From: Moniliella sp. 'wahieum'
Taxonomy: Eukaryota
Reading direction: 5' to 3'
DNA: 64,000 nt
Assembly: GCA_003971905.1 (NCBI GenBank)
Contig: RSEE01000003.1
Coordinates: 558,001 to 622,000 of the forward strand
Of the stretch, positions 14,102-53,999 are shown one piece after another. Under the pieces are notes generated by a model. That model was not told the DNA's origin. It ran no database searches and saw only the letters and a program-made list of their open reading frames with translations. The first letter of the stretch is position 1. Each line of letters opens with the position of its first letter. A program made the translations under genes and the position numbers.

Positions 14102-15683
14102 ATGGCCGCTCCGTCCCCTTGGGAAACCTGACGACGATCATCAAGCGCCTTGAAGCCGCCACTTCCCGTCTCGAGGACCTGGCGGAGGCGCAGGCTGCTG
14201 GTGCTCCCCCTGCCCCCCAGCCAGCTGCGGCTTCCGCTGCACCGGCTGTCGCAGCTGGCGCGGTTACTGGGGCCGCTGCGTCAGTGGCTGCATCTGGCAG
14301 CGCCCCCCTCCTCCTCCCCCCCCCCCCCTCCCTCCTCCTCCTCGGCTGTCGAACCTGCTGCGCCTGAGGTACCCAAGGCAGTGGAAGCCTTCGACGAAGC
14401 AATTAAGGACCCGTTGGCCAAGTTTGTCGAACTCAGTAACCAGATTGGCGGGCTGGTGGCCGACCAGGCGAGTGACTTTGCTAAGACGTTCGATGCGCAG
14501 CGTGCACTTATATGGATCGCGGCTGAGAGCAAGAAGCCGGCCGAGGGATTTGCGACACCTGGGTGTGACGTGCTGCTCAGGTCGTTGCAGGAGTCGGTCA
14601 TGGCCACAACTGAGGTGCGAGAGAAAAATCGAGGGGAGCGGAAACTGTTCAACCATCTATCGGCTGTTTCAGAGGGTGCTCCTGCTGTGGGTTGGGTGGC
14701 TGTTGAGCCCAAACCGGCTCCCTTTGTAGGGGAAATGAAGGATGCGGCGCAGTTTTACTCGAACCGGTGATCAAGGAGTTTAAGGACACGGACAAGACCC
14801 ATGTCGAGTGGACCCGAGCGCTTGCTGCACTACTCACCGCACTTCAGGCTACGTCAAGCAGTACCACACCACTGGTTTGGCTTGGAACCCCAAGGGAGGC
14901 GATGCGTTATCGTTTAAGATTCCCGGAACAAGTGATGGAGCTCCTCCTGCCCCTGCGGCCCCTGCTCCACCTGGTGCTCCCGTGCCTCCTCCTCCTCCCC
15001 TGTTGCGGCATCTGCACCTGCTGGCGGTATGGACGCAGTCTTTGCCCAATTGAACAAGGGCGAAGGCATCACCAAGGCACTCAAGAAGGTGGACGAACGC
15101 AGAAGACCCACAAGAACCCCGAGTTGCGCGGCCACACCGACAGCTCCAACCCGCATGGGTCTGCGCGGCCTAAGGTGCCCTCTAAGCCAGCTACTACGAG
15201 CGAAGAAGCCACCTGTCTTGGCCCTAGGGGAACAAGTGGATCGTGGAGAACCAGGAGAACGAACGCAACATCGTCATTAAGGACACGGAACTGGGCCATA
15301 CCGTCAATATCTTCCATTGCAATTCATCTACCATCCAGATCAAGGGCAAGGTGAACCAAATTAATATTGTGGGGTGCTCCAAGCTCTCGCTCGTGTTCGA
15401 CTCGGTGGTGGCATCTGTCGATATCACTCACTCCCCCTCGTTTGAGGTGCAGGTGATTGGCAAGGTGCCCACCATTCTCCTTGATGGGTGCGATTCGGGC
15501 CAGATTTACCTCTCGGCTGAATCGCTTGAGGTTGACTTGGTCACGGCCAAGTGCTCTGCAATCAACGTGTCGGTCCCCAAGAATGGATCGGACGAGTTTA
15601 CGGAGCTTGCTTTGCCGGAACAGATGAAACACACGTTCCCCGGCGGCAAGCTCCAGACGGAGATTGTAGCACATGCTGGCTAA
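14102..15683 (+). CDS. SRV2: Adenylyl cyclase-associated protein CAP/Srv2
   Basis: 'LTTIIKRLEAATSRLEDLA' RLE motif, helical domain 'FNHLSAVSEGAPAVGWVAVEPKPAPFVGEMKDAAQFYSNR', 'YVKQYHTTGLAWN', polyproline, WH2 'AVFAQLNKGEGITKALKKV', C-terminal CARP domain ending 'TEIVAHAG*'. Confidence 0.97.
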
Positions 15684-15774
15684 GCGCTAAGCGCTTGAGC
15701 TTTTTCTTCTCTCTGCTCGGGCCCTCGACGCATCTTTTGCCCTGTGCACGGCAATAACTTCGACGCATTTGTGG

Positions 15775-16190
15775 CCCTCAGACCTGAGTCAGGCCTCAGT
15801 ACCTCAGTAATGAATAAGATGGGACGTGGCGCGCGCGTGAGGGGATGCAAATGAACAGCTGGCTGCCCTGGAAACGGGTACCGGTAACCTCCAACTTATC
15901 CAGGGGGCTGGACCGGCCCTGCTTCACAGACGTGCTTGAAGCCTTGTGCTCACCACTTCATGCTTGAAGACTTGGGTGGGCCTCGCCGAGGCGCGCGCGC
16001 GCTGAGCCTCGGGCCTGAGGGTCGATCATCGACCAACGTCGATCACCGCGAGCGCTCAGCGGCTCAGCGCTGAAGCTCAGCTCAGTACGTCTGAGCGGCT
16101 CATTAGTCACTAGTCACTAGTCACTAGTCACTAGCTGCGCTCAGGCTGAGCAGCACTAGTGAGGCTCAGCTTGCACTTAGCACTCACTAG
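15775..16190. repeat. TNA/4-bp-palindrome 7-nt island between SRV2 and the ceramidase gene
   Basis: (AGTCACT)x4 at 16105-16132; tca-ggcc-tca-gtac, tca-gcgc-tga-agct, tcga-tca-tcga. Confidence 0.85.
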
Positions 16191-18529: not shown

Positions 18530-18860
18530 AAGAGGGCCTGAGCGCCCTGAGGCTCAGGTGAGCTTTCACTCAGCGCTCAGACTGAGTACTGAGTAGCTGC
18601 TGAGCAGCTCAGGAGCGCTCAGGCTGAGCGGCGAGTGAGTGATCAGTGATCGGGCAGTATTCCACGTCACGCGTCACGTGCGCTCATCGGGACGGGCGCC
18701 GGCAAAAGTCCGTGCGCAGCTAACTGAGTCACGTTGGCGCGCGGGATGGTATCTGGTCGAAGCAGGCCGAAGCCATGTTGGACACGGCGGGGGCCCAGTG
18801 TGTGCCGCTCTCTCCTTCGCCGTATTGCGGAGGGCTGGCGTGATGCATGATGCATGATGC
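18530..18860. repeat. TNA/4-bp-palindrome island upstream of cyclophilin
   Basis: ggcc-tga-gcgc, tca-gcgc-tca, tga-gtac-tga, tca-cgcg-tca, tga-tgca-tga-tgca-tga (18841-18857). Confidence 0.85.
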
Positions 18861-20755: not shown

Positions 20756-22352
20756 CTATAGTACTACTACTAATGACAGGGACAAAGACATCACACATGC
20801 TCCTTCTGGGCTCGATCTCATACTGTGCGCGTGCTCTTTGCCCGTGCCAATCCCATCAGAAGACCAGTGTTTTTGTCGCCAATAACAGCTCAGGACCTTT
20901 GGGCCCTCTCGCCATACGCTCCAAACGGGATATAGCCGTGAGTGAGTACGAATGAGGGCGACAGTCTTGTGAGTTGCATTCCAAGGTGTGGAGTTTGGGA
21001 GTTGGGATCGTGTTCCAACGGGACTGGGATTGTCACGCGGGAGGGAGTGATACTTTGTCCGGATCCGGTTCATCAGGGATAGATATGTGCTGTACTTCAA
21101 TGTCGATGGGGAGGAGTGTGGTGGGTGTAGGTAGTAAGATGTCACGGCGGGGTTGATGTTTGTTCCGGTTTTGCCCTGCTCTTCGCAGGTTGACCATGTA
21201 TCGTGGTGCGACCGCAAGGCTTAGCAGGGCATGCAATGGCAAAGGCAGTGCGCTCAAGGCATTGTTAGGCGGATCCCTACGGTGGAGGTAGATCCAGGTC
21301 AGGGCTAGACCCACACTTTCTACCGCCACGGCGAAGCCAAAGTACCGAATTGTGTCAAAGAGGAACTGACCGCTGACGGGACTCAGATGGGCAATGCGCC
21401 TCCTCACGTATGCCCTAATGCTGCTGTTCGATTCCGAACCGTCCGCCTTGGGGTAGAATGTCCACATCATCGCACACGTGGTGAGCAGCATGATCGTGTC
21501 GCTGATAAACGCCAGGAGGTAAATAACCACGGGCCACCAAATACCAGATTGAAGAGCGCCACAACGCATGCCCACACGAAAGTTGAGAGGTACAGATCCA
21601 CCGCCTGGCCAACTACCATGGTACAATAGACAACCGAGAGATACAAAGGGTTAATAGGAGGGGGGGCATGTGTGTGGAGGGGGGAGAGCGTACAATTCAA
21701 CACGGACCGAAGCCACCCATCCAATCCAGGATGCTGCAGTGCCGGCGACCAAGAGCCAAAGAATGGCACCGAGAACCTTGGCGTAAGGAATCGTCCGAGT
21801 AATAGAATATGTGCGGAGAGTGAAGATTACTTGAGCGTTGATGACGCTAACGGCCAAAAGTGAAATGTAGCCCGTAAGAACTGGGAGTGTGCGTGTCAGC
21901 AGGGATGCAGAATAGGACCACGAAAAGAATATCGGTACTCTCTCACTGGGAGGGGGATAAAGAGACGCGCATACATGTTTGGCAATTTGAAGGATGGCGA
22001 TAGTAGAATATGAATGCCAAGGTGAACAAGGGAATAGTAATCAGACGAGCCAGCATGTGGCAGAAGCCAGCGGGAGAGGGGGCGTATGCGCCGACTTTCA
22101 TCCAAAATGACGGACGCTTTTGTTGACTGACCTGGCGTTGGATTCGTTTCCACTCGGCGTAGTACACATACTTCCAGTCCGAAGGAAAGCTCACCAGCAG
22201 GTCCCAAATGACGCAGCCGGCAATGAAGAGGGATATCCACCATGACAATGCTCCGTCGTATGATTGTCCGTCCTGGAGGGAAACAAAGGCTGTAGTTCCT
22301 CAGGCAAATCACCCATTTGGAGGATGTCGGAAGAAGGAGTCAACTCGGCCAT
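20756..22352 (-). CDS. Multi-pass (7TM-like) membrane protein, DUF6533-like, paralog A (3' end uncertain)
   Basis: 'WWISLFIAGCVIWDLLVSFPSDWKYVY', 'INAQVIFTLRTYSIT', 'PLNFRVGMRCGALQSGIWWPVVIYL', 'GQFLFDTIRYFG', 'LSLAVAPRYMVNLRRAG'; collinear with paralog B. Confidence 0.7.
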
Positions 22353-22569
22353 GATATGCCAACCAGCAGACTCCTGTGGTCTTTTGGAGAACGAGGGGAA
22401 GGTCGTTGAAGGTAAAGTGTGTACAAGTATCAGAGGAGGGGTGGTTGATATATCAGTTACAGGTCCTGCCCGGGGCGGGGCTGAGCTAAAGGACGAGTTT
22501 CACCACACAGCTTGTGAGCCAAGCTTTTACGACAGGGAGAAGTAGGATATAAAATCGTGTGTATGGGAC

Positions 22570-23090
22570 ATGGCGTTAAACGTACGTTAATCGATAATCA
22601 TTCAAGTTTAACGGTAACCGGTAACCGGTAACCCTTGAAGCTTGAGGGTGAGGCCTGAGGCTCAGGCTTGAAGCTTGAAGCACCAAGAAGAGGTTGACGC
22701 TGAGGCGTTGTGGCCTTGAGGTCAAGCCTCAGCCAGAGGTCAGGCCGGTCACCGGTCACCGATCAGGCCTGAGGGGTTTTGAAATTGTAATAGGATCGAA
22801 AGAGAGACCTAGTGCCTAGTGACTAGTGCTAGTGACTGGCGCCTAGTCACTAGTCACCGGTCACCGGTCACTAGTCACTGGTCACATGGATTGTCACATG
22901 CGTGTCACAGTGACTAGTCTCCCTCAGGAAATGTTGACGAAATGTTGAGGTATTTATATCGCCCTGAGGCCTGAGGGCCCCGACTCAGGCCTGAGGCTTC
23001 AAGCTTGAAGCTTGAAGCCATCAGGCCCTCAAACCGTTCAGGGCCGCAAATGGGTTGAACGTTCAGTTGAACGATGAACGTACGTGCCTC
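22570..23090. repeat. TNA/4-bp-palindrome island upstream of paralog A
   Basis: (GGTAACC)x3 at 22613-22633; tga-agct-tga; tga-ggcc-tga; ctag-tca-ctag-tca-ccgg-tca-ccgg-tca-ctag-tca-ctgg-tca-catg at 22843-22888. Confidence 0.9.
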
Positions 23091-23963: not shown

Positions 23964-25511
23964 TCACACTAAAAGCTTTTGAAAAGTACAAGCTGTGGGG
24001 GAGTTGCAAGACATTATTCGTTTCACAAAAATATCGTAATCGCATGGGTAGAGGGGCGGGACAGATTCGTCAACGCGTATCAGCTCCGGACGAGGAAGGG
24101 ACTCAGGCGCGTATGCGGCGAAGGCGGTCCTTGAGGACTTGGCCAGGGGCAAGTTAGAGGGGTACTGAGCCGCTTTGTTTAAATGGGGGAGGGGGACGTC
24201 CCATTCCCTCTCAGATTGAGATGGAAGTTTTTCCAGATCCATCTCCGGATGAGGAACCGAGATGTGTTGAACTTCGATATCAACAGGGATGGTGCGTCCT
24301 CCCTCCTGGAGAGAATAGGTATCGGTATTGGGGTTGTTCGAGAAACTCGTCGGCTCCATGGGTTTTGCCCAGCCCTACGCAGGTTGACAACGCACCGAGG
24401 CGCAACCGCGAGGCTGATCAAAGCATGAAGTGGCAGTGCCACTCCGCTGAGCGCGTTGTTGGCAGGATGAGTACGATGGAGATAGGTCCAACTCAATGCC
24501 AGGCCCACACTTTCGACCGCCACGGCAATTCCAAAGTACCGGAACGCGTCAAAAAGGAACTGGCCACCAACAGGGCTGAGATGGACAAATAGCCTCGTCC
24601 TCCCCCTGAGGTTGCTTTTCGATCCTTCACCGTCCCTCTGGACGTATAAACTCCACATCATCGCGCACGTCGTGAACAGCATAACAACGTCACCGATAAA
24701 TGAGAAGAGATAAATCACCACGGGCCACCAAATACCCGATTGCAGAGCGCCACAGCGCATGCCTATACGGAAGTTGAGAGGCATCGTCACTCCATTTGGC
24801 CAGCTAATAGAGAGCAGATTAGAGCATGAAAGAGAAACAAATGCGCAATGGGGAAAAGGGTTACTTACGTATGAACCCGGACAGATCCCACCCATCCAAG
24901 CCAAGATGCAGCCGTGCCGAGTACCAAGAGCCCCAGAAAAACAGATAACACCTTGCTGTAGGGAACCGTCCTGGTGATCGCATAGGTGCGTAGTGTAAAA
25001 ATGATTTGGGCGTTGATGTTACTGACCGCCAAGAGAGCAATGTAGGCGGAAAGGTCTGCAGTGATGGAGAGACAGGAGTCAGGGAAGCCTGGATGTGAGA
25101 GGAATAGCAGAACGGCACACATGCATACCTCCTTGGCAACTTGATGGGTTGCGGTAGTATGCGAAAGCAAGTCCAAACATTGAGAAGGTGAGAAGACGGG
25201 CAAGGATATGACAGAATGCGGCTGGGGTAGGAATGAAGGCCTTCAGTTTTGTCAAACGACTGCAGTGTTTGCGTTGTTGCACCGTCTGCTTGATTCGTCG
25301 CCACTCGGGACTGTATATGTATTTCCAGTCTGACGGAAAGCTGACCACGACGTCCCAAAACACACCCGCCAACAAAGAGGCATACCCACCAGGTGATCGC
25401 CCCGTCGTACGAACTAGCGTCCTGGAACGCGACAATTGGCTGCAACTCTTTCGGTAAGTCGGCAATTGTTGGGAAGGGGTTGGTGTTGTTGGTGTACGGT
25501 AGGTCGGTCAT
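23964..25511 (-). CDS. Multi-pass (7TM-like) membrane protein, DUF6533-like, paralog B
   Basis: MTDLPYTNN..., 'WWVCLFVGGCVFWDVVVSFPSDWKYIY', 'INAQIIFTLRTYAIT', 'PLNFRIGMRCGALQSGIWWPVVIYL', 'GQFLFDAFRYFG', 'ISLAVAPRCVVNLRRAG'. Confidence 0.7.
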
Positions 25512-25789
25512 GGTAACAAGACCTGCCCGAAGTGTATGGTGGTGACAGAGAGAGGGCCTGATGGTGGGATAAGTAGTTACAAAATATGGGGCCGAGGGGA
25601 CATGAAGAAGACGGTTTGAACCGAAGCCCACCGGGATGGAAGATGCATGACGCATGATACACGGTTTTATGCGTGGGTGATTGTTTGTGACATTTATAAG
25701 AGATCCGAATCTGAGACCCGACCATGTGGAAGGAACGTGGAACCCCAGACAAGTGGCGTTGCCGGTGTGCCGGAAACGTGGGCACAAGC

Positions 25790-26570
25790 TTAGCTTCAAG
25801 GCATGGGATCAGTACTCAGTACCAGTGAACATCGATCATCGATCACTTTAACGTACTTAAGCTTAACCTTTAAAATTAACGCGTGGTACTCTGACTGAGC
25901 TGAGTACTGATATGTAACGTACTGACGTACTGATGTACAGAGTACTGATGCATGATGCATGAGGCCATAAGGCCTAAGGCTTAGGCCTTAGGGCCTCAGC
26001 CTGAGGCCTGAGGGTTGTCTGCGCCGTACGAGATCTGAGAGATCTGAATCTGACAGCTGCTGAAATCCATGTTCCTGAAGCAGAACTGACTGCGCTCCTT
26101 AGCCGGCCGGCCTCTCTCTGAGACCTCACATGTCAGAGGCCCAGGCCTCAGTACCTCAGTGTACTCATTTACTCCGTCAGTACTCTCAGTACTTAGTACT
26201 TAAGATGCCCCCTGTAGCTTAGGTGCATGTGGGAGCGCTTGGGCGATCTCTCACAGTCACATGTGGCGCCCCGGATGTGGCGCGTGGTGGGGCTCAGCTC
26301 AGCGCTCAGCGCTCAGGCTGAGCGCTCAGGCTGAGCAGCTGACGCTGAACGCTGAACAAAACGCATGTTCGTGCAAATTATCGGGCCCAGGGGGTCAGGA
26401 ACCAGGTTAGCTTTATCGCGCGGTTCTAGCCTGTTCTGGCTAGTACACATTAAAGAAGCTACTTGAAGCTTGAAGCTTATGTCGTTGAAACCTGTAGGAC
26501 TAGTCATCTGCATCAATCATTAATCATTAATCATTAGTACTTAGTAACTGTATAACATGTAACAGTTTTG
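25790..26570. repeat. TNA/4-bp-palindrome island upstream of paralog B
   Basis: gtac-tga-tgca-tga-tgca-tga-ggcc (25942-25966); tca-gcgc-tca-gcgc-tca (~26300); tca-ttaa-tca-ttaa-tca (26517-26533). Confidence 0.9.
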
Positions 26571-27637: not shown

Positions 27638-27763
27638 GAGGGAGAAGGAGAGAAGGAGAAGGAGAGGAGAAGGAGAAGGAGAAGGAGAAGGAGAAGGAGA
27701 GAGGAGAGGAGAAGGAGAGGAGAAGGAGAAGGAGAAGGAGAAGGAGAAGGAGAGAAGAGGAAG
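27638..27763. repeat. Homopurine (GAAGGA)n-type microsatellite, ~125 bp
   Basis: Uninterrupted G/A tract dominated by GGAGAA hexamers. Confidence 0.95.
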
Positions 27764-30540
27764 TTCACCTGAACTCCTTCCAGTAGGCTCCTAGGAATTG
27801 GCCTCTTCCTGGGTTTAGAATAAGCTATGTGTGTGGATAGTGGCATCCGGTTACCCCGAAACGAGGAGCGGTTATATTCAACACGCCCGTCCCCTGTCAC
27901 AGCCAGTTCCTCACATCTCGCGCTTGGCGCACAACATTTCACTCTACTGTGCCAGTAACTCACTGGGCATGCCGAGAAAGACTACGCAACCAAAAGTGTG
28001 TTTTGCACATCACACCGTATCAAGAGACATGTTTCCAAGTCGGACCATTATGGGTAGAGGGCCGAGTCGTAACTCGACAGCACTCTCATCCTCCTTTCAT
28101 AATATTCGCACACCTCTCTTGAGATCGCTTCCAAGAGCTGATTATGGACATTTGCAAATTGCCCCGGACCATGATGGTTAGACAGTGAGGAGGAAGTGGG
28201 ATTTAGGTCACGTCGATCATACTGGACGAATAGTACGTCAGTGCTTTTGCAAAGCCGCCTAAGGCAGCATCTCGCGGTTCATGGGATCGGTTCTTTTGGC
28301 AGCCCAAATGACTTGCGGATGGTAAGGACTGTAGTGAGATATCAAAGCCTGTAGGTGGAAGGCGATGCATGATGGGAGGATTAAGCACACTAGTACGCGG
28401 AGAATGCAGTGTGGAGAAAGGAAGGCACAGACATGGCGGATGTAGCCCAAGTTGAAGGGGGTGTTGGCTGATGGTTGGAGGATGGTACGCTGTGCAGCGG
28501 CTGACCGTGAGCGGAATCGCGGCTTAAAGTTTGAATTCCATCCTGTGCTTTTGCGGCTTGGGTAGCCAAAGCGAGCGTCATCCATTTTGCATGATGAATG
28601 ATTAATGATGCATGATGCATGATGTTCGGCCAAAAGACGAGAGTACTGTTGTGCGTACTGCTGGTATTAGGCGCAGGTGATGCCATAAGAGATCAAGATC
28701 CACGAGCGGGGCGGGGGTAACATGTAACAGGTAAGGTAACTAGTACATAATAAGATGTAACCAAGTAGTTGGGGACCATCGACCAAGGGGCGAGATGCGG
28801 AAAGAACAGCAAGCTTGCACTGCTGTGGTGGTAGTTGTGGCAGCACACGTTGGATCAACGATAGTGCTGGGGTAAACCCTTGCTGACATAATCGACGACC
28901 AGGTGCAACGCCAGCAGCTTGAAACTGCTCCGACTTCTGGCGGAAGGTCGGATGGCTATGAGCTGAAGGCCACCATGTCCATCTCCATGTCCATGCGAGC
29001 GCTGCGAGCGATTCCGTCACGCTCCAGCCCACTTGCCCTGCGAAACATCTGCTCCTCTGCTCGACTTGGCGCTTCAGCCCTGAGGAGAGGCCAGAGGTTA
29101 AGTTCGATCTGCCCAAGTACGTCAATGAGCCAGGGGGTGCAGCGCATGTGCCCAAGGTGCGCCCCGTGTTGTGCGCGACATCCCCCCGATCCACAGTGAA
29201 AGCTCAAGTACGGGCTGATATTTGGTGGAATGTGCGCCTTCTGGGGCCTTTATACCCTCTACCTCCCAACCGTGAGTCACTACCTCTACAGGTTTCCGCT
29301 ACGCCGTCCGCTGTGTGCGGGACAACGAGCTGGCCAAACATGCCTTGGCGGTAACGTCCGCCTGGAACCGTCAATCGTGGGAGATCCTGGATCAGCGGCA
29401 CAGTATGTTAGCTTTCGTCTCCTTTTCCCAGTCGCTAACTAGCTGACACTGCGCTCCCCTCAGATCAACGTCTTGCAAGGCAAGATCGACATTTCCTTCC
29501 GCGTGGTGGGCGGCTTGCGTACGTCCAAATTTTCCTATTACTTTGGAGAGGAGCGACAGATGAATCAAGGTGGGGGAAGGTTACTTTACCTCTATCCGGC
29601 GCGAGAAAGTGCCAAGTTTGAGGTTATGCGCTTTGCCCTCGTTCCCGGATCGTAAGGGCAAGTCGGGAACACACTGGACGATACGACATGTCATCTCCCT
29701 CCTTGGACCAGATGGGATGATCTGGAGGATTGAAACATTTTCTCCATGCGACACTCGGCGGTGCACCATTTCTTTGTGTCTTTCACGCTAATTTTCAGAT
29801 GGAATGCGCCCCATGACACACTGTAGTTCTTGGGCTATTTGCGGGCGCTGGACTGGTTGACGGCGACTGTGTCAGTAAAGGAAGGTCGGAGGAGATTCGG
29901 GAAGATGTAAAGTAACAGTATTACTCTAGACCACTGCTTGTAAAATGAGAGTATCTGTTACTGTGCTTTCGGTTTGTGCAACAGCTGACGATAGACAATG
30001 CCACCGAAAAAGGACCCAGTTTACCAGTAGTCAACTGGCGTCGCGCGCTGCTGACCCTCGCATCGTACCTTCCGCGTTATCGGCATCTTGGGCCCATGTT
30101 CCCCTCGGCAAAGGGGGTGGAACCAAGGTCAAAAGAATAATCTCCCCTCCCTTCAATGCCCTACTACCTAAGTACCTGATCATTCACGTTAAGCAGGACG
30201 CGGCAGAGGCGGCGCCCCGCGGGGGTAGTACTGGTGCTGCCATGACGTTGTATTTCATCACCACCGTCCTGGCCACCAATTCATTCTCCCTTGATCTGAG
30301 CCATATAACCGGCCCAGTGTCGACACGATTGGTGCTTTCCACAGTCATTTGGTCTACACCCCGGGGGCAGTACGGTTATTTGGCCCTTGACTCCTGAATC
30401 GTGAGGAGGAAGCAAAAAGCAGTCTTGGCTTGAAAAAGGGCAACATTGACATATTGACATGGCACCGAAGTCTTCAATCGTACTATATTGCCTCCTAGTT
30501 CTAACGAAGGAGACAGACCTACGCTTAAGGTGTTTGGTCT

Positions 30541-34439: not shown

Positions 34440-35715
34440 TGTCATTAACGTTTAACGTTTAACGTTTAACTAAACTGGCACAGATCTACTCGATCGATCA
34501 CTGATCGGATCAATGGTCGATGATCGATGATCGATTATCGAATATCGACGATTACCGGTTACCGATTGCCGGATTACCAGCATCGTTATATCGCCATCGG
34601 TTCATGACATTCATGCAGTTCATGTTTCTCGACATACCGTCCTTCGAGCTTCGAGCTTCAAGCTTCAAGCTTCAAGAAGCTTCATCAGCTTCATCGATCA
34701 TCGATCATCGAACCCGACCATCTATTCGCTACTCGTACCTACGGTCGATCTCAGGCAGCTGGTTCTCACTCGACCTTTCTAGTATACCTGATGCATGATT
34801 CATGGTCGTGATGCATGACGGCAGCCCGCCACCAGCACACAAGCCGCCCAGCATGTTTCCAATTACTACCCGAAAGGCGTTTACGGATATCCCGTTCAGA
34901 GTTCAGATCAGAAATGGCCACACGTGCTCACATCTCTTTCACTTACGACCAGCTTGGACTACCGAAAGCCCCTTTTCGCCACTGAAAACAGCCTGTACGT
35001 TTCTGCGAGGAACGCCTCCCCGAGATCTAATATTGAGTAGCGCTGAGCCTCAGCTCAGTCTGCGTGCGCTTTGGCAGTTCTGAACGTTGAACGTTGAACT
35101 CGATGATGTCGACGTGCACGCCCCTTGAGGAAATTCTAACCAGACAGCAGGCGTAGGCTGTGTGGCGTAGCCACAGAGGACTCAAGCTCAAACTGAGGAG
35201 GCGCCCAGTTTGAGCCTCAGCCAGCTGAGCCACTGTGGAAGTAACCAGAGGTCCAGGGTTGGGAGCATTTCATCATGGGCATCATATGATGGCACGGCTT
35301 TCGTTCCCCGAAAGCAAGCGACAGCCGCCACCCTTGGCTATCCCGATAAAAGGGGGATTTGACTGTTTGTGGCAGATATGCGGGCGAGACGAGCAAGGGC
35401 AAAGTACTATAATGACCGCGGAAACTGATGTGCATGCATCTACTGCTACCGTCTGAGATTGAAAGAACGTGCGGAGTGCAGTGACTAGGGAGGGACGCGT
35501 GACCATGGTATTTCGGTGCTCATATTCATAAGATCTAAGACAGCATCAGTCTAGAGGCCGGATACGATGTTGCCACACAAGATGACTGAGTACTTCGAGT
35601 ACTAGCTGTACTGCCTACTGATATATGATACTGAGTACTGACCACTGACCGCTGACTACTGACTACTGCGACTTGGCATGTCTCTAGTCACTAGTCACTA
35701 GTCACTAGTCACTGG
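34440..35715. repeat. TNA/4-bp-palindrome islands between the Far1/Ste5-like gene start and the actin 3' end
   Basis: (GTTTAAC)x3 at 34450-34470; (agct-tca)x3 at 34654-34674; tga-acgt-tga-acgt-tga at 35081; tga-tata-tga at 35619; (AGTCACT)x4 at 35686-35713. Confidence 0.85.
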
Positions 35716-36158
35716 CGAAGCCCACAGACTCCGAAGGCTGATATGGCGTGGGCTTGGCAAAATGTAAGCCAGGGGCTTTCAACCGTATTACTATCTTCTA
35801 GCTCTCTCCTCCAGCTTTCTGCCACCAACGCCCATCTTTCACCCGCTATCATAATATCGATCGGCTCCGCTACTTTCCCTATACTTCAGCATCCATTGCA
35901 ATCCCCTGGCCGCGTGGCTCAGGACGTCGCTAAAATGAAAAGAGTTCAGTAGGGGCAATTCAATTGGGCTCGCGCGCATTGAGTCGATGCCAAATTGTTA
36001 CAGACTATGCAAGCAAGAAGCCAACCACAGGGGAAACGAGCATATTTTTGTATAGTAAGCAGCTGGACAGTTACACACCCACACAGCAGAAAAGGCAAGG
36101 AAGAACAACGGGAAGAAAGTGCTCCGATGGGATAGGAGGTGACGCAGAAGTCCCAAGT

Positions 36159-37550
<1,392 letters not shown>

Positions 37551-41832: not shown

Positions 41833-44800
41833 TCAGAGGGGCTGGAGGTGGAAGAGGCGGCATGACGGATCGAGCTTCCTCGACCCTCTTCTACAAGTCG
41901 GAGGTGCAATCCCATCGCCGGCTGACACACGGGTAGGCCCTTGAGGATGGGCACAGCATTGCATGCAAATTGCACGATGGGGTCATTGGTGTTGAGCGAT
42001 TGGGCCATCATCTGCACCTCGTTCACGGGCATACGCTGCAGTGCCGGCAACAGGGAATTGGTCACTTGTTCCGGACTAAGCACAGCCAGGATGGTAGGCA
42101 GAAGATCGCCCACAATTGTGGTGATGTTGATCGGAATGTCCAAGACGGTGGCAAGGTAGGTGGTGTAGATGTCATACCTGTCCAAAGTGTTAGTATACAC
42201 GGTAGAATATGTCAAGCAGGAGAGGGTTTGGAAGGGGAGGCGTACTCGGTGTAAGACAGGGAGGGGATCACATATCCTCCCTCAATTTCCGCCTTGATCG
42301 TCGCTTCGATGGAGAGAGGCTGAGTGAGTAGGTCGAGAGAGAACAGCAAGCCGCGGGTCATGGTAAATTTACGGGGATGCGGCCCGTTTCGCCTGGATTC
42401 ACCTGGACGGGGGAATGATATCTTGATCCACGGTGGCGCGGATAAGGGATGGATCACCTTCCCTTCGAGCCAGCTTTCCAAACCAATGCGGAGATGCGCT
42501 CGACCGTCAAGGCGGCTGCGAGCGGATTGTGGATAGACAGCTGTGCCTGCCCCTTGCTGTCGAAAACGCCGGCAAAACAGGGATAGTCAAATCCAGCTCC
42601 AGCACCAACCTGCCCCTGCTCCAGGAAGAACGGTGGGCATATCGAGCCCATACAATGCCGGCACCAGCGAGTCATAGGGAGATGCAGGGTAGAGATTTTC
42701 TGTGGGCACCCCTCCCACCTTAATGGGGGTCATGGGGTATGGCTCCCCCTCCCGTACCATTGTTTGCTGGCCCCAAGTACTGCCGGATCAAATCAAGCGC
42801 AATCGGATCAGGGGTTGCTGGGCTCATAGTAAAATCGAACCGGAACGGCGTTGTCTCCCGGGAGTAGGTTCAGCTTAGGCAGGAGGAACGCCCGGCCCAC
42901 GTCTTCTCCTCGGTAAAACATGGGCAGATAGAGGTCGCGCGTTAAGATCGATATGTTACTCGGGTTGGGCAATGTAACGGTAAGAGTAACAATAAGATAC
43001 TCGGGGGTGGACCCCGCAATGCTCACCCCGGACAAGGGGGCTTGGTGGTTGAATGAGTTGATGCCCTTGAGAGAGGAGGGCACATTGATGGTGATTGGTG
43101 ATCTCGATGGTCCCAATGTGAGTGTTGCGCGTACGACTGCCTGCCCAACCAGCTGGAGGTCCAACTCGGGTGTGTCCGCAGCCGCAGCGACAAATTTGTC
43201 AAATGTGCGTTGTTGAGAGACAAGAGGTTTTCATCTTGGAAAGCGAGAACCAGGGGAGAGTGATGCTCTGGTCCAGTAGACACCTCTCTCCCACATCCCT
43301 CATGGGCAGGTTGAGCTGAGCGCGGCGACATTTCAAACATGATCGTGTGATAGCCGCACTGACTTGGGTCGGAGCCAGGGTGAAATGAATGGGATTGGCG
43401 TACATGGCCAGCGTATCCTTGCTTGAAGGGGATGTTGTAGGATACGATGGCCGGGTCCCCCGATAAGTCCAACTCCAAATCCAACAGCGTCACCGAAAAT
43501 AACCTCATACGCCTTTCCCACCAGCGTCACATTGAGCTGGAGGGTGGAGAAGGCATCGGATAACCAGCCCACCCTCCCGTTTGATAAGGAGTGTCCACCT
43601 CCACTCCTTGTACCACTAGACTCAGATTGTTTCCCTGTAGGAATTCAGAGAATAACACCCGAGGTTATTCAGCCCCGTCTGGGATGTCTGCCGCACCAGC
43701 TGCCCATTCAGCACCGTCGAGGTTACAGCCACGGGAGCTAAGGAAAGTCCATCGGCTGAGCGGAACCCAGCTCAGTTCCTTGGAAGAAGAGGTTGAACTT
43801 GGCGGTATTGAGCTCGATGCCCAGCGTTGCTGGCGACGGGATATTCGCCCCTACTGAGATGGAGAGGTAGTCGGATCCCTCGCCGGGAATGTCAAAGGTG
43901 GTGGTGGCCACACCAGGGAGTCCATTGAACGCCTGGAATGTCACGTTTTGACCAGGTTCACCTCCGAGAAGGTGATCCCCAGAGCCAAGACATTCACTTG
44001 GGAGCTGCTGATCTCCCAGGTAAATGATGGATGTGGAGAATGTACTGGGCAAAGGCGGTGAATGCAGCTTGATCCGTGATATTCACTTGACCGAGATGAG
44101 CAAATTGGGCACACCCTTCCCAGGTATCGTGCAGATGGGAGGTAGACTGATGGTCGCAATGAATGAGCCATTCCATCGAATCTTCAATGGGACGGAAAGT
44201 GATCAACGCATTGGTTGGTGCATCGGTCAGAAGCTCTCCACGTAGGTCCACGTTGAGTCCGTCGTCGGTAACGGGGGTAATGTTACCTTGGGCAAAGCCA
44301 ATACGGCCTGATCAACAATCTGCTGGATCAACGGAGCTCCCGCCGGTGCAGAAGGTAAAGTGCCGATTCGTCCGTGTGAATCGGAACAGGGGCCTGGCTG
44401 AAGTAAGAGTCACCCCATACTCATCGATATCGACATCCGTCACGATGGGGATGGTGACTGCCAGCCCTTAAGAGCTTGTAGCATGGCTCCTAGTAGATCA
44501 AATGCCCCATTAGCGGGACAAGAGCTTTCGTCTCCCCCGGCATACCCTGACTTGCGTCGAGGCATTCCCGGGTAAATCAACGATGCGATGAAGGAAGGGA
44601 GGCCAAGGTCCGAGCGAAGTCCCGCTTCCTGAGCCAGTTGCAAAAGCAGGCTACGAGTATTTTGGGGTTCGTATTGAGGCCATAGGAATGGCCTGGCTGA
44701 CGTAGTAGTGTGCCAGGTGCATGAATGACAGGCGACAAATCCGCGTGATGGAGCCCAATGTCAAGTTATTGTACACTTTAGATATGCCGCAAATGCCGTC

Positions 44801-47800
44801 AGTCATTATTGTACGGCACACAGCAGTAAGAGAGGGGACCGTACCAGGAGCTGCTACGATTGATTGATATTCAATGCTGCGGTAAGGGATTGGCAATGTG
44901 ACCATAACAAAACGTCGTTGTCGGCATCAATGTTGCGCGGAACAGTGAGGTTCCTTCGGTGATCAGCAGCTTCCCGAGCGGAGGGATCTCTGTGGTTAGG
45001 CGGATACCTTGCAGGGCTTGGGAGAGGGAAGGTACCTGAGTTGAGTTGTCATATCCTGCCACCACAGCCACTGTGGTCACATTGCCCACATAGTTGTTCA
45101 GTACAGTTTGCCCCGCTTGCACATTCTCTGCTCCCTGAGGGGAATAATGCAAGGCGGTGGGGACAATGTTCTCCATCGGACAGCTACCAGATTCTCGATT
45201 GCTGCCGGACCGACAGGGTGGTCGTTGTACAGAACTTGGAACTGCACATCGCCTGTGCTAATGGTGATGTCCGAGGGGTTGAAGAGGGGGTGTTGAGGTT
45301 GATCTGGAGATAGGAGGGGTAGCCGTGGAAGACGTCCAGATCCGTCACATTGGCTGGACGGGCATTAAAGCCCTGCAAGCCCAAAATGGACGTATTCACT
45401 GCAAACGGAATGTCCGTAATGGTTACCACACCCGCCGCTGTCTCCGCCAAAGCAGTTGCTGCTCCATGAAGTCCGAAGTCCACCTGAGGTTGCAAAGTGG
45501 CATCGGCAAGGAAATGGCTGAAAACGGGGTGAGACGGTCCGGAAGAAACAAAGGGAACATTATCAAACCCGAGCGTGAGCACACGGGTATCCACATCCGT
45601 CTTTGCAGGGGAGGGAGGGATGTCGAGGACCGCCGCATCGCCTGACCCATAGTTGGCAATGAATCGCCCCTGAATTTGGGTGATGTTGATGGGGAACGCG
45701 AACGGGAGGAAAAAGGGGCCGTGGTGTTGACACTACTGGCGGCAGGGCTCCAGGCCGAGGAGGGGGTGAAGCCCAAAGAAAGCTGATTGAGCGTGACACC
45801 ACGGATGACGCCGAATCTTGCAGCGGGAAGCGTGACCGGAATACTAAGCACCTTAATTGCGTTGTTGAGCCAGGACACATTGGCTGGCCCAGCATGGTCA
45901 CCGTTAACAACCAGGGCCGTTGGGATGTCATGCACAAAATTGGTAAACACAGTGCTAAGTACAGCTTGTCCTGCACTCGTGGATTGCTGAAGCAACTGGC
46001 CAGAGAGATTGAGAGGCGTTTGGCCGAGTGCGGCCAATGTGAAGGTGTTGGCGGCTGCGGCAGGACCCAGCAATGTATTGTTCCCTACCACGTCCACCCC
46101 AAAAGTAGACAGTTCCATACCCAACTGGGAGGGATTATTGATGAGAGTGCTGACGTCAAGATGAATCCCTCCTTGAGGATCGTTCCCTGGCAAGTCAAAT
46201 GAGTTGATCTGGACCTCTCCCTTTAGGCCATTGAAGCCAGTGAGCACAACCTTCTTGGACAGGGTAATGTTAGGCACCGAAATACCAAGCGCATCCACCA
46301 CGATCCCCCAGCTGTGATGTCCCACGCAAAAGAAGGACCGGTAAGCGCCGCCTTGGTAAATTCCTCCATAAACGTCACGTTGCCCACTTGGAATACTGTT
46401 GTCACATTAATCGTCGCTCCCACATCCCCAACCAAGGTGATGTCTGGGAACGCAATCTGGCCCAACAGTCGGCCATCGTAGTTGACCTGCATCCCCTGGG
46501 GAAAGTGAACCAGACCGTCAAACGGCCCAGCCTCTGTGGGGTGCCTTGCATTTGCACCCCAAACGTCGTCTCTTGAGGATTGAGGACTGTGACCGTATCA
46601 ATCGCGAGGAGTGCCTTGTCCACAATCCGCTGAACAATCGGCTGGGCGAGAACGGGGAGAAGGTAGAAGAGCGTATTGTCCGTCGCTAGCGGAACATTAA
46701 GTTGGGCCATCGACAAGGAGGTAGCGTAGTCACCGACCGTTGTGTTGGCCACCACAGATAGGTTGCTGAGCGCATGCGCAAACGCCTCACCCACATAACT
46801 TGTGAGGTTGAAGTCATGAAACATGTTGCGCTTCTGATGGCGATTCACTTGGAGGCCACGCTTGTACAATCCATGCTTCAGCGCATCCTCTTCCTCCGAC
46901 ATGCAACACTCCACTCCGTCGCTCTCCACATCCCTTTTCATCGTCCCCCCCACTGAAAGGTGTACTACCGGCGGTGGTGGCATATCTACTGTCGGAGTGA
47001 GATTGTCCCCCCCACAGCACAGATGCCATCGATGAATCCTGGATCAAGTCCGGCCATTTGAGCATACGCCCGCACCGCCCCAAAGATATCGGGGGGATTG
47101 AGATTTAAAGTGAGTGGGATGGTCGGTGAGAGCGTAGTGGCGTTCGCATTGGCCGGGAAGTTGAGCGCATAATCGATTTTGGCCAAATTGATTCCGTACG
47201 CGAAGACATCCGAAGAAATATGAGTAATGGTCAAGTCGGTACTGAATGGGTTGGCGAGGGAAACCACGGCATCTGCCGTGTCGTTGACAATGCCTGTAGT
47301 GTTGAGCACTTGGAGCTGCGCTTTTGATACCAACGTCTGCTTTAGGCCAGGGAGAATGGTGTTGATCCGAATCTTTTCGAGCGAAGGATTAAGTGAGGTA
47401 ATGGATGAGGAGCCGTTATACCCGTTGATGTAAAGCAAGGTGTCCTGCCCTGATACGAAGCGGTTAAGAGTAACTTGGCCTGTCGGGCCTGCCCGAGGAT
47501 TAAAGACGGCCTGTGCTGTCACATTATTCTCCCCCAAGTCGAGGTGCAGATTGGGCATCGTTACCGTTCCCAAAACCACGTCGTTGACCAATTGGAAGTT
47601 GACCGTGCCGGTGGTGAGGTTCAGGTTCGAGGGGTTGATGATGGTGGTCTGAATTGAGAGTAGCAGTGCATCCGTCGTACCCCCTGTCAGATCCACAGCA
47701 CTGATCACAGTTGGGTACTTGTTCAGTCCCTGGAGTCCCGTCAGTCCCGACTCGACGTCAAAGTTGATAGGAGAGAGGAGGATGCGCCCAACGGGAGTAT

Positions 47801-49385
47801 CGGTCAAGGCGTGAGACACACCAGCAAGACGAGTGGAGGTGTTCACACCAAATACCAACACATCCTGGTACTGGGTCCATAAGTCCTGCTGCGTCTGGTT
47901 ACCCCCTAGCACCAAAGGTGAGAGGGGTAAGGTCAAGGCTAAGGTCCCCGCCGTTGAACCGGCATTTACCACGTCCAAACTTAGAGTCGAATTGGAGTAG
48001 GTACCCTCCACCACACCGACAACCGAGTTGTTATACATCAGCTTGATCATGTCTTGTGTGTCGATAATGTTGAGCTGGAACCCAAACGGCAGACCGATCA
48101 TCGCTTTAAGGTTGTCAGAGAAGGCCAACGGTTGCCAAGGAGAGTCTTCTGAAAAGATGATGCTGAATTCGTCAATCTCAATGGACTTGATGGGGCCGAT
48201 GGGCTGGGTTTGCAGCGGAACGTTGATCGTCAGCGCCTTGATACCCTTTGTTAACCACGAGATCACGTCCCCATTTGCTTGTGTTGCCGAGACACCCTTG
48301 GCCACAACAGGAACGAGTTCGCCATTGATATATTTCGTAAAAATATCGCTGGTGATGTCAAGTGCGGTCTGGTTGGTGTTGTAAGGCAGTAGGCGACCGG
48401 TGAGAAGGATAGTTTGTGACCAGAGGTAATGTTAACCGGTTCAGAACTGGCGCCTGGTCCCATGTAGTGGTTCTTGTAGTAGAGATCCAAATTGAGGTAT
48501 CCTAGCTGCACCGAGAAAGGCGATGGGTTGACCAAGGTGGTCAGGGCTTGGAACGTGATGCCGCCCAAGGGATCGTTACCTGGCAACTGAAAGTCTAGAA
48601 GCTGAACGTCATGGAAGTTGTCAAAGCCGTTGAAGTTGACGTGTTTTTGGAACTTGTAGTTCTTGTACGTTGGCAAGAAGCCAAGAGCCTCAACATGGGT
48701 GTTGTTGCATACGAGGTTCCAGGTAAACCGCGGCTGGGTGACGAGGAACTCGGTAAAACGACCAAACGCTTCCTCATCGGCAATCGTAAACGTCGTGGAT
48801 TGAAGCACCTGACCGTGGCCACTGTCGACACTCACACGCCCCAGTGGGAAGCTTCCCAGGTGTAGCTCCTTCAGTTCTGGGGGTGGGGACATCCAGTAGA
48901 CATCTAGCGGCTCGCGGAAGTACAGCGAGGCTGGGAAAATGCCAGCCTTAATACTCTGTTTCTTAGGGGTCAGGCGGAGTCTGATTTACGCAAGAAAAGG
49001 AGTCAAAAAGGGGATTGCAACGGACCTGTCCAGAGAGCGAGAGAGGAAAAGAGTTGTTGGTGAGTGCGGTCAGGTTGGCCTGATCAATGGCCAATTGAAC
49101 GACATTAAGAGTGTGGTCTGCAATGGCCCAGAGGACGGGGACAAGAGCAATCACTATGCTGACAAGGGCGGTAGGAGGAAGGAAAACAAGAACGAAGAAG
49201 CCCAATTTCTTGGTCAGATACTTTTTCTGGTAGGGCGTACCATGTGCGGCAAAATAACCGATGGGCTGCCCAACCCGATACATCTGCCCAGATCTGCGTG
49301 GGGGAGGGGCATTGGGGTGACGGCGTCGGTGTAGGAGTCCTGCACTGTCGATGGGCGCCCGTATACCCGAGGCGGATGAAGACAT
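41833..49385 (-). CDS. Giant single-pass membrane protein with repeated LEA-2/DUF3712-type beta domains (Tag1-like), roughly 2400 aa
   Basis: N-terminal TM 'FFVLVFLPPTALVSIVIALVPVLWAIA'; recurrent 'FQLPGNDPLGGI...TLVNPSPFSVQLG', 'FDLPGNDPQGGIHL...INNPSQLGMEL', 'TIINPSNLNL', 'TLPNPSNISI' units; ORFs tile about 7.5 kb with many indels. Confidence 0.8.
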
Positions 49386-49594: not shown

Positions 49595-51000
49595 CGGGGT
49601 AACCGGTAACCGGTAAGGCCTACGCGGCCTAAGGTCCACGGCGAGGGGACTAGTGACTACTAAAGATACTGAGAGTGTTTCCAGGAGTTGGCACGTGCTA
49701 GGGTACGCCAAAGCACTTGGAACTGTTGCCCCGTCACATGTCACAGTGTGTACACTAAGTACTAACGCATGTAACAAGCACATGTCACACCATCACTGAA
49801 TGTGATATGCGTGACAGACACGTACAACATGTAAAACACATACTGTGAATGTGAAGCGCGAAGACGTTGCTGTCACGGCCCTCTTAGCCAATCAGGTAAA
49901 TATTCTCCTGCACTTCGCCGACCCGGTTTCCGTCTCTCTATACCAGTGCATCATTTGCCTATACCTTGCACTTGGTCTCACTCGTATCGTCCGACCCTTT
50001 TACAGTCGCCCACAAATCGCGATCAGTGCTCCCTCTACCTTCTATAGTTTGCTGGCTTCAAATTGTACCCACATTCGCCGTTAACGCGTACCGTTTAACG
50101 TGTGGCCCACCCTTCTCTCATAGCCTCCTGTACATCTCCTCAAAACAACATCCCTCATTCTCCTCCTTGAACAGCAGACCCTTCCTATAACGGGCGGGCG
50201 AATCATATGCATCACACAGCCCACGGATCGTCTACCATATAATTCAGCAATGCCCCCGTGCTGTGTGTGTACCTGAACATCATGCCTCTAAACATCGTGG
50301 ACGCCAACCCCTGTTGCGTCCCCGGGCCCATTGCCCATTACCAACGCGCTATTGCCCATATCGCGAGCTAGTCAGTAGTCAGTACTCAGTATAGTCAGTA
50401 GTCACTGGTCAGGCCTCAGGGCCTCAGGCCTCACGCGCCTCACGGCCTTACTAGCACCGGCCTCACTCTCACGTGTCACACATCCACAGGACCTCGGCCG
50501 GCCTCGGCGTCAATCAATCGTTAATCGCGTTAACGTTAACGCTTAACACTGGTACTGGCCGGAATGATTAATGATTAATATTAATGATTAATGACCGCTG
50601 ATAGGTGTAAGCCACCGGTGACCACTGACCTATTCATGCATCATGCATCATGACCAATGGAGAGGTAGGATCTAAACGATAAACACGATAAACGTTAAAC
50701 GATGATCGATGATCAACCGGTCGTTGTTGTCTCTTCAAGCTTTTCAGTTTGCACCAGCTGGTCCTCCGCCATACTCGGCCAGTATTACTATAACGCCTAC
50801 TCCGCCCTACTCCGCCCCGCAGCAAACAGTAGATACAGGTCACCGGTCACCGGTCACTAGTCTGTCCTCAGTACCTAGTACACTCAGTACACAACTATGT
50901 ACGCCTTCAGTTGTGTACTCAAAACGTTCTCAACGTTCGAGATTCAACACACGCAACCGCAGTACTACGTACACTCAGTACTCAGTACTCTAAGTACTCC
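49595..51000. repeat. TNA/4-bp-palindrome islands upstream of the Tag1-like gene
   Basis: taa-ccgg-taa-ccgg-taa-ggcc (49600-49620); tca-ggcc-tca (~50410); tga-ttaa-tga (~50565); tca-tgca-tca-tgca-tca (50634-50650); tca-ccgg-tca-ccgg-tca-ctag (50840-50860); tca-gtac-tca-gtac (~50975). Confidence 0.85.
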
Positions 51001-53000: not shown

Positions 53001-53554
53001 CCATTTCATTGGCAGACTTAAGAAGGGGGACAGGGGGAACGCTACGTCTAAACCTAACCGTTCATCTTTATCTCTCTAGAAACGCAATAGAAAGGGGAAC
53101 GGAAACAATAACAAGTGGTGCTAGGTTTGGTCTGAGGCATACCCCGAAACCAGTTTCAAATAAGTTTGAGGCAGTTTGTATCTTGGCTCAATCCCAAAGT
53201 TTGGAGCAAGTGCGCTTTATTCAACACGCCCGCTGGTCCTTCGTATTCCATGCAGTCAATATAACTACGGCACCAAGACGGCGGGCAAGTTGTTTGCGCA
53301 TTGGAAGAGTTGGCTACTAAGTCTCAGTGGAATGGTTCCTCGCTCGGATGTCAACCACGTTCCTCCGTGTCCACACGCGCTTACTAGGGTACGGGACCGG
53401 ACGGCGAGAACCGGAAGGTCCTGATATCCTGGCGATCCCACTGGCTTCTTGACCTTAATTAGTGGCGCCCCCAAGTAACCCCCGCGAGATGATCGGTTAG
53501 GTTTACTACGTAGCGTTCCCCCTGTCCCAGCCTTAAGCTCTGTCAATGAAATGG
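53001..53554. mobile_element. MITE-like element with ~67-bp imperfect terminal inverted repeats
   Basis: 53001-53067 CCATTTCATTGGCAGACTTAAGAAGGGGGACAGGGGGAACGCTACGTCTAAACCTAACCGTTCATCT aligns to the reverse complement of 53487-53554 (CCATTTCATTGACAGAGCTTAAGGCTGGGACAGGGGGAACGCTACGTAGTAAACCTAACCGATCATCT); no clear TSD. Confidence 0.6.
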
Positions 53555-53999
53555 CCGCGACTTAGGCATCAGGTTCAAGACATTTGCCCATTGCCTGCGG
53601 GCGCTTCGACCAGTAGCTGCCCTCGGCCCAGCAGCCACTACAGATATCTCTGATCGATGTTGGTTGGCGTTTCTCTTCGCGGCCGTGAAAAGTGCAAGTG
53701 GCATGTGACAACGCGTGACATGCGGCACGTACTCATTTCCACCAAAAGGTTCCGCTCTCATCGGACGCGACGCGTTAAAATGTTGTACGTGTTGATTGGA
53801 AAAAAAACATCGACTTACCAGTGAGCTCAGCGCTCATGATGGATGATGGATGATTAATTATTCATGCATTCATGATGCATGTGTGCATGATGCGTAAGCC
53901 ATGTATTTAAGCGACTGCAATCGCCGTCATTCTTTCTGGACCCACACACCACTTCAACCGTTACGCTACACAGCACCCACCCCCGATTGATACATCACA

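Follow-up and report, generated by a model that had tools for sequence, protein, structure and literature searches.

A shared palindromic grammar in the period-7 repeat arrays of a Moniliella contig

Known heptamer repeats and the arrays of the window

Heptamers repeated in short intergenic arrays are known from bacteria: GGGAATC in Xanthomonas, GGGGA(C/T)T in Nostoc and three heptanucleotides in Calothrix, grouped with the short tandemly repeated repetitive (STRR) sequences. In the accessible part of the report that treats them (PMC4692102), polymerase slippage is proposed as the origin of their over-representation, inverted pairs are able to form stem-loops, and turnover between relatives is fast. 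The present analysis concerns 64 kb of DNA from Moniliella sp. 'wahieum' (contig RSEE01000003.1, positions 558,001 to 622,000 of the forward strand; hereafter the window), in which an earlier note had pointed to a run at 22843-22888 where TCA triplets alternate with palindromic four-base fillers. As far as that part of the source describes the bacterial heptamers, the arrays of the window resemble them in period (7), intergenic position, short arrays and the occasional inverted pair with stem-loop potential. They differ in that the bacterial arrays consist of one or a few G-rich, non-palindromic units in prokaryotes, whereas at least 11 units obeying a single grammar are found here in a eukaryote. 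Assignment to the cyanobacterial STRR or bacterial heptamer class was therefore rejected on the number of unit types and on the eukaryotic gene content of the window (split actin, SPT8, CAP/Srv2, Ras, DUF3712). Elhai et al. reportedly found, in 2008, small dispersed repeats inside Nostoc heptamer arrays. The literature searched did not describe this grammar for any organism, eukaryotic or other; the conformity of the Nostoc heptamers to it lay beyond that search. A paper on a Fusarium 'palindromic microsatellite' deals, in its accessible part, with mitochondrial elements.

Hairpin-forming microsatellites offer another comparison. Their slipped strands escape flap or loop repair, as in triplet-repeat expansion, and palindromic loops escape mismatch repair in yeast. 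The arrays of the window are like them in that self-complementary units appear to be preferentially expanded, and unlike them in the 7-nt unit, the minimum stem of 2 bp with a 3-nt loop and the many different sequences; the arrays described here are known from sequence alone. Quasi-palindrome template switching is established in bacteria, yeast and apes, according to the accessible parts of four reports (PMC7202029, PMC8794818, PMC8604942, PMC7954356). It produces paired complementary multi-base changes that preserve or perfect an inverted repeat, which is how the TA, CG and AT swaps described below look, but in those parts of the sources it is described for single imperfect inverted repeats and not as a source of period-7 direct arrays across a genome, and it does not predict a T-N-A centre. 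The footprints and target duplications of cut-and-paste transposons share with the arrays a short tandem duplication, a palindromic junction and a sequence-specific centre; unlike these, the arrays are accompanied by no element found in the window, and their filler diversity and flank statistics do not fit.

The grammar of the arrays and their growth

The run at 22843-22888 (forward strand) contains six TCA triplets at an exact spacing of 7 nt, which separate the fillers CTAG, CTAG, CCGG, CCGG, CTAG, CTGG and CATG; as had been claimed, six of the seven fillers are palindromic and CTGG is the sole exception. Tandem Repeats Finder reports the run with period 7 and 6.1 copies, among 125 rows for the window that are mostly of period 7. 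The same run can be written as six copies of the pentamer GTCAC, with TCA as the core, accompanied by the centre dinucleotides TA, TA, CG, CG, TA, TG and AT, and because the pentamer is constant, the 'palindrome swaps' of the earlier note are changes of the centre dinucleotide. The run forms the right arm of an inverted pair, whose left partner (22808-22842, forward strand) carries CTAGTG(A/C) units in reverse-complement orientation with a TGA core, the CTAGTGA units lying in 22808-22838, and ends in a GGCGCC centre. The arms 22808-22838 and 22843-22885 form an imperfect inverted repeat, a possible template for switching. Folded alone, the run gives a hairpin around the third TCA (-8.8 kcal/mol, z -4.3), and 22795-22925 folds as single-stranded DNA at -29.8 kcal/mol (z -4.7). 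A (TCACCGG) array sits 100 bp upstream. Tentatively, we take the run to be a short, interrupted heptamer microsatellite; it is one of about 40 places in the window whose non-coding DNA consists of 7-bp units under a single grammar.

The pattern lies far beyond chance and is not local to this site. All array counts given here refer to the 64-kb window rather than to the whole genome. At period 7, 50 runs of at least three T-N-A triplets were found, and 76 of their 133 fillers are palindromic 4-mers. The other 15 X-N-Y triplets at the same period reach at most 9 of 84, with no palindromic-filler enrichment for A-N-T, C-N-G or G-N-C centres; 0-1 palindromic fillers were obtained at the control periods 5, 6, 8, 9 and 10, and 0-3 in 20 first-order Markov simulations. 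When single decamers are considered (T-N-A, four nucleotides, T-N-A), the filler is palindromic in 134 of 317, against an expected 1/16 (binomial p ~1e-74). Eleven palindromes are used near-equally, with 8-15 units each (ACGT, GTAC, CTAG, AGCT, CCGG, GCGC, GGCC, TCGA, TGCA, CATG and TTAA); among the 134 units GATC, CGCG, TATA and ATAT occur rarely and AATT never. The central N is C or G in 87 of the 111 units that keep the same N. Perfect period-7 arrays of at least two copies consist exactly of T-N-A plus a 4-bp palindrome in 42 of 66 cases (2.7% expected, p ~1e-48), and those of at least three copies in 9 of 10. About two thirds of the perfect heptamer arrays of the window, with many different sequences, thus share one symmetry rule.

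The fewest elements are left broken when the runs are described as an odd-palindromic pentamer, x'TNAx, that alternates with a self-complementary dinucleotide. Across 26 runs, 84 of 100 pentamers are palindromic, compared with a background of 27%, and most exceptions stand at run ends; centre dinucleotides are self-complementary in 67 of 74 cases (7 broken), compared with 25% by chance. Between two palindromic pentamers (n=87) the dinucleotide is CG in 28 cases, GC in 19, TA in 18, AT in 6 and another in 16, so that 71 of 87 are self-complementary, while CA/TG makes up only 3 of the 16 broken ones. Pentamer and dinucleotide vary independently, as in the chain at 22985, where CTCAG, CTGAG, TTCAA, TTGAA and TTGAA follow one another with GC between each pair, and each of the four pentamer flanks and each of the four N is in use, as are four centre dinucleotides. 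A palindromic filler needs no separate origin under this grammar, because two adjacent odd-palindromic heptamer copies produce one automatically. Several apparent single-mutant fillers are hybrids of two blocks: GGCC-GGCT-AGCT (22985), ACGT-ACGA-TCGA (50689) and TGCA-TGAA-TTAA (28592). A further rule, by which changes of inner bases would be mirrored about the filler centre and those of outer bases about T-N-A, was discarded as too weak (n=9, Fisher p 0.048).

The changes within runs preserve symmetry more often than independent mutation would. At least 7 symmetry-keeping change events occurred in the 26 runs, whereas 0.06 are expected at a substitution level set to yield 7 broken centre dinucleotides in 74; the contention that plain slippage with independent point mutation is insufficient holds, and palindrome-to-palindrome double changes exceed the independent-mutation expectation by far in the window. 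The earlier note had also held that broken forms as common as swaps would speak against it, and taken literally they are more common: in-register neighbours comprise 26 pairs with the same palindrome, 4 swaps (22847, 22861, 28599 and 58951), 14 pairs of a palindrome and a non-palindrome differing by one base, and 19 pairs of a palindrome and a more distant non-palindrome. Several of the 14 one-base pairs are hybrid junctions between blocks and not mutants. The proposal that independent palindromic fillers are added beside a duplicated TCA fails, as 2-nt half-sites change identity at both centres (28 of 100 links across T-N-A, 14 of 74 within fillers) and repeats end at the filler centre. The alternative, that symmetry is restored or selected, stands in its general form: some bias, correction or selection maintains it, as seen in the excess of symmetry-keeping events, in the 71 of 87 self-complementary dinucleotides and in the different behaviour of other genomes. 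CTGG as a half-way intermediate is plausible for one step, and CTGG or CCAG adjoins GTCAC arrays at 22833, 22875, 35709, 50402 and 58549; against a wider role stands the share of CA/TG among broken dinucleotides given above. The observed/expected ratio in the window is 0.83 for CpG, 1.16 for TpG and 1.14 for CpA. CpG decay was rejected as a general route, since it fits only CCGG to CTGG, CA/TG is scarce among the broken forms, and two of the four swaps require paired transversions (TA to GC, TA to AT).

The arrays grow by head-to-tail direct duplication. In 111 of 134 units the two neighbouring N agree, and in 14 they are complementary; the enrichment is found where the linker is 4 nt long and N is unchanged (111 of 195), and arrays of at least three copies number 10 at period 7, compared with 0-4 at periods 4-12. 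That the central N stays the same from copy to copy indicates replication slippage or unequal exchange. At 8 of 9 clean block boundaries a single half-site base differs, and direct palindrome swaps keep N in 4 of 4; blocks must therefore derive from one another, or be exchanged between similar arrays, rather than having been inserted independently. Isolated T-N-A pairs have a palindromic filler in 58 of 184 cases. In these 58 units the flanks match the repeat at +-1 and +-2 in 32-36 and at +-3 and +-4 in 16-19, close to chance; matching drops after +-2, which places the ends of repeats mostly at the filler centre and makes the odd palindrome y'x'TNAxy the natural unit. Left and right matches are independent (both in 10 units, left only in 15, right only in 18, neither in 15). 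When ten arrays were folded, seven reached z <= -3.0 and one -2.1, and two were no different from shuffles.

Mirror junctions, formed by T-N-A, a 3-nt odd palindrome and T-N'-A as in GCTCAGGCTGAGC, are present too. The phase between neighbouring blocks (n=32) is 0 in 11 and -1 in 10 cases, the two classes together giving p 1.5e-5. Odd palindromes with arms of at least 6 are enriched fourfold (64 vs 15.8 simulated), whereas even palindromes are not (22 vs 17.4). The 13-nt odd palindrome GCTCAGGCTGAGC recurs at 1237, 16139, 18616, 20361, 26308 and 26324, sometimes in period-13 arrays (26297-26353), and variants of it, including CTGAG-N-CTCAG, occur at 18546, 22653, 25992, 35042 and 57453. It may represent a dispersed motif in its own right, or else no more than the most frequent mirror junction that the heptamer grammar produces.

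Among the genomes sampled, the grammar is specific to this one. The comparison loci were (TCACTAG)x3 arrays in at least 123 metagenome contigs and (TGAAGCT)x3 arrays at at least 121 loci of prokaryote genomes, with Pseudomonas contributing many; both seed arrays are widespread among the matches listed. Other palindromic fillers in these matches stay at background (95 of 2346 in the metagenome set, 111 of 1765 in the prokaryote set). After exclusion of 133 and 128 seed arrays, respectively, other perfect arrays of at least three copies obey the grammar in 4 of 103 metagenome and 0 of 52 prokaryote cases among the matches listed (4 of 155 together), compared with 9 of 10 in the window (Fisher p 3.5e-11). 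The bacteria in these matches amplify non-palindromic variants of the seed, such as AAGCTGC and AAGCTAG. The grammar is absent from sampled genomes that have the same seeds, so something that they lack maintains symmetry here. Also among the matches listed, (TGAAGCT)n together with amplified non-palindromic variants such as AAGCTGC is common in genomes of Pseudomonas, Stutzerimonas and Xanthomonas. One 8.1-kb metagenome contig, nearly gene-free, has 121 Tandem Repeats Finder rows and 5-9-nt arrays of many units; despite a similar first appearance its arrays depart from the T-N-A grammar, and it was set aside as a different repeat syndrome.

Clusters, spacers and genes of the window

The T-N-A palindromic units are confined to non-coding DNA: 1 of 134 lies within open reading frame (ORF) pieces supported by Pfam, where 26 are expected. 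In total, 99 of the 134 units fall in 12 clusters of 3.5 kb combined, and the arrays form much of the DNA between the genes of the window. The non-coding spacer 22446-23065, lying between an unnamed gene at 21036-22339 (-) and a forward-strand ORF that starts near 23159, contains 18 perfect units of T-N-A plus a 4-bp palindrome (TAACCGG, TGAAGCT, TGAGGCC, TCACCGG, TCACTAG, TGAACGT and others). A second large cluster (25809-26562, 20 units), which includes the period-13 mirror arrays of GCTCAGGCTGAGC, is located upstream of the gene 24182-25808 (-). This gene is a paralogue of 21036-22339 (-), about 3.2 kb away, pieces of 203 nt and 185 nt being 76% and 72% identical. Both paralogues have array-filled upstream regions of about 750 nt, and the two regions cannot be aligned to each other.

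The window has further clusters. The one downstream of the CAP/Srv2 gene (15681-16130) begins with GCTAAGC x2.4, which overlaps the end of the CAP ORF, and includes (TCACTAG)x4.4. The CAP/Srv2 frame ends inside the first unit of the (GCTAAGC) array (15679-15695), and the next two units give TAA and TGA in the other two frames. A cluster at 18570-18857 separates the ceramidase and cyclophilin genes, and another, of 12 units, occupies 34445-34818 (TTAACGT, TGATCGA, TCAAGCT, TCATCGA, TGATGCA). Downstream of the actin gene, the cluster 35529-35711 shows TGA-type units followed by (TCACTAG)x4.3 ending in TCACTGG. The 14 units at 50379-50984 include TCACCGG x2.9 followed by TCACTAG, and the cluster ends about 20 nt before a TATATATA motif. 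At 58539-58988, clusters of TCACCGG/TCACCAG are found together with (TCACTAG)x3.3 that switches in register to (TCACATG)x4.9. The small cluster 28599-28727 has TGCA, TGAA, TTAA, TGCA and TGCA in register on a constant ATGAT. TATA-like motifs at 16404, 23117 and 51004 each follow the end of an array at a distance of about 20 nt.

The window itself is eukaryotic and gene-dense, with a GC content of 0.50-0.63. Through a Pfam scan of the ORFs, a split actin gene (36074-37550, -) was identified, together with genes for SPT8, a Ras GTPase, a DEAD-box helicase, CAP/Srv2, a ceramidase, a cyclophilin, an RRM protein, several DUF3712 paralogues and an AAA_11/12 helicase; SPT8 and DUF3712 make a fungal origin of the window probable. 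Homologues of the window proteins are at most 65% identical, and tRNA and Rfam scans of the window gave no match. At least three DUF3712 paralogues form a tandem cluster at 42811-48985 (-). One DUF3712 gene (47211-48892, -) aligns to homologues in two frames across a 5-nt gap at 48413-48419, as a result of either a frameshift or an assembly indel. Inverted repeats of 50 nt at 52998-53047 and 53508-53557, 80% complementary and enclosing 460 nt, form a foldback element or one like a miniature inverted-repeat transposable element (MITE); no clear target-site duplication was seen at the ends of 52998-53557. The longest simple repeat of the window, a (GAGAAG)n hexamer array of about 18 copies at 27641-27759, is unrelated to the heptamer grammar.

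Possible origins of the symmetry and their meaning

The explanation to which we incline, without holding it to be quite probable, is that the arrays are hairpin-prone heptamer microsatellites, which would grow by direct 7-nt duplication with preferential amplification of self-complementary units. Each unit, and any stretch of an array, can fold back into a stem with a T-N-A triloop. Slipped-out self-complementary units would then escape repair and be amplified, whereas symmetry-breaking variants would rarely be amplified. The dinucleotide changes on GTCAC may be substitutions, or may result from copying templated by, or exchange with, sister GTCAC arrays; the change of CG to TG would be ordinary CpG decay, and re-amplification by one slip could account for the two copies of CCGG. 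The palindromy of the filler would be a by-product of the grammar and not a separately added unit.

Several observations weigh against this explanation, above all the T-N-A rule and the specificity to one lineage. None of the explanations offered accounts for the obligatory T-N-A centre. Known stable DNA triloops are of the G-N-A type, and hairpin physics is not known to predict T-N-A; A-N-T, C-N-G and G-N-C centres are without enrichment. A sequence-blind mechanism should act elsewhere, yet it is not seen in other genomes, which, together with the T-N-A rule, hints at a lineage-specific factor. Two of the ten arrays fold no better than shuffles. The 58 palindromic units among 184 isolated two-copy units place the bias at or near the birth of the repeat, where slippage has little substrate, and the independence of flank matches (10/15/18/15) is predicted neither by a clean 14-nt duplication nor by a one-sided model. 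The paired transversions of two of the four swaps mean that CpG decay is not general. Moreover, a simple microsatellite would be expected to have an arbitrary unit, but 42 of the 66 perfect arrays obey one grammar, and the comparison genomes amplify non-palindromic variants.

Template-switch symmetrisation (quasi-palindrome correction) is an unlikely alternative, which corresponds to the actively restored symmetry of the earlier note. A nascent strand that folds back, with itself or the other arm serving as template, would transfer a half-site substitution to the mirrored half-site, and double changes would arise in one step. At least 7 symmetry-preserving changes are seen against 0.06 from independent hits. 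Half-site identity spreads across both kinds of symmetry centre, mirror junctions make up 10 of the 32 phases between neighbouring blocks, 13-mers of the GCTCAGGCTGAGC type recur, and the run 22843-22888 lies within a well-folding inverted pair. The growth of the arrays is nevertheless direct by a wide margin (same N in 111 of 134 units, complementary N in 14), while fold-back copying would flip N. Template switching also leaves T-N-A and period 7 unaccounted for, and the mechanism operates in all organisms whereas the grammar does not.

It is rather doubtful that a process particular to this lineage, nuclease- or transposase-like, writes 7-bp tandem duplications at T-N-A-centred odd-palindromic sites and so paves the intergenic DNA. 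The elements of the hAT group are excised via hairpins at the flanks and leave palindromic footprints. A more definite version, which we consider improbable, would have a dimeric nuclease or transposase make a symmetric 7-nt staggered cut centred on T-N-A, after which repair or excision would leave a 7-bp tandem duplication with a junction made palindromic by hairpin resolution, and slippage would extend the arrays. The candidates, at the same low level of confidence, would be cut-and-paste elements that duplicate a 7-bp target site, for instance those of the fungal hAT7 or Kyakuja groups. The strict T-N-A centre, for which no other triplet substitutes, and the restriction to this genome resemble sequence-specific enzymology; the duplicated unit is a 7-bp odd palindrome, as would be expected of a segment duplicated through a symmetric staggered cut, and repeats end at the filler centre (32-36 of 58 at +-1 and +-2; 16-19 of 58 at +-3 and +-4). 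Basidiomycete transposons with 7-bp duplications are described in the accessible part of one source, hAT7 in Pucciniales and Kyakuja in Laccaria (PMC12730594). On the other hand, no transposase domain was detected when 142 (12 + 130) ORF translations of the window were scanned against Pfam. Element termini cannot supply at least 11 fillers and all four pentamer flanks at near-equal frequency, a protein cannot demand symmetry without base specificity, and the flanks lack the one-sided pattern that a hairpin footprint predicts (of 58 units, 10 match on both sides and 15 on neither). PIF/Harbinger elements have a T-N-A target and precise excision but prefer N = A/T, while N is C/G in 87 of 111 same-N units here. 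Footprints of the Tc1/mariner or PIF type were discarded because of too many filler types and the predominance of C/G at N, and P-nucleotide footprints because they would give x x' x x' fillers, which are not seen.

The possibility that the arrays are selected cis elements, acting as a cruciform or hairpin promoter or insulator, as sites for dimeric proteins or as stop codons in all frames, also seems improbable to us. T-N-A corresponds to TGA/TAA on one of the two strands, and at period 7 these stops reach all three frames of a strand; the CAP ORF terminates within the first array unit. Arrays fill the spacers, stop about 20 nt short of the TATA-like motifs and are excluded from coding sequence, and the regions upstream of both paralogues (21036-22339 and 24182-25808) are alike in size and still filled with arrays. 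These upstream regions are unalignable, however, so that particular sequences are not conserved, and a palindromic filler is unnecessary for stop codons. Exclusion from coding sequence is expected for any 7-nt repeat prone to indels, and there is no single consensus among 11 near-equal fillers. Arrays of transcription-factor sites were discarded, since one repeated consensus would be required and all flanks, all N and four dinucleotides are used. Chance or an assembly artefact can practically be dismissed: the 5-nt gap or frameshift at 48413-48419 means that the assembly may carry indel errors, but the probabilities (~1e-74 for fillers, ~1e-48 for arrays) and the many different array sequences at about 40 places argue otherwise, and we know of no sequencing artefact that writes such arrays.

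The alternation of x'TNAx with a self-complementary dinucleotide is unusual and mechanistically unexplained. The co-varying palindromic filler follows from this simpler grammar. The abundance of heptamers in some bacteria is known while its cause is unresolved, and the eukaryote described here presents a much sharper version of it, in which the T-N-A centre is obligatory. Should the cause be mutational, the arrays are a natural experiment on how DNA secondary structure decides the birth and growth of microsatellites. If it is enzymatic, they mark an undescribed DNA-cutting or transposition activity and form a readable record of its scars; if it is functional, they represent an unusual promoter or insulator architecture that is degenerate in sequence.

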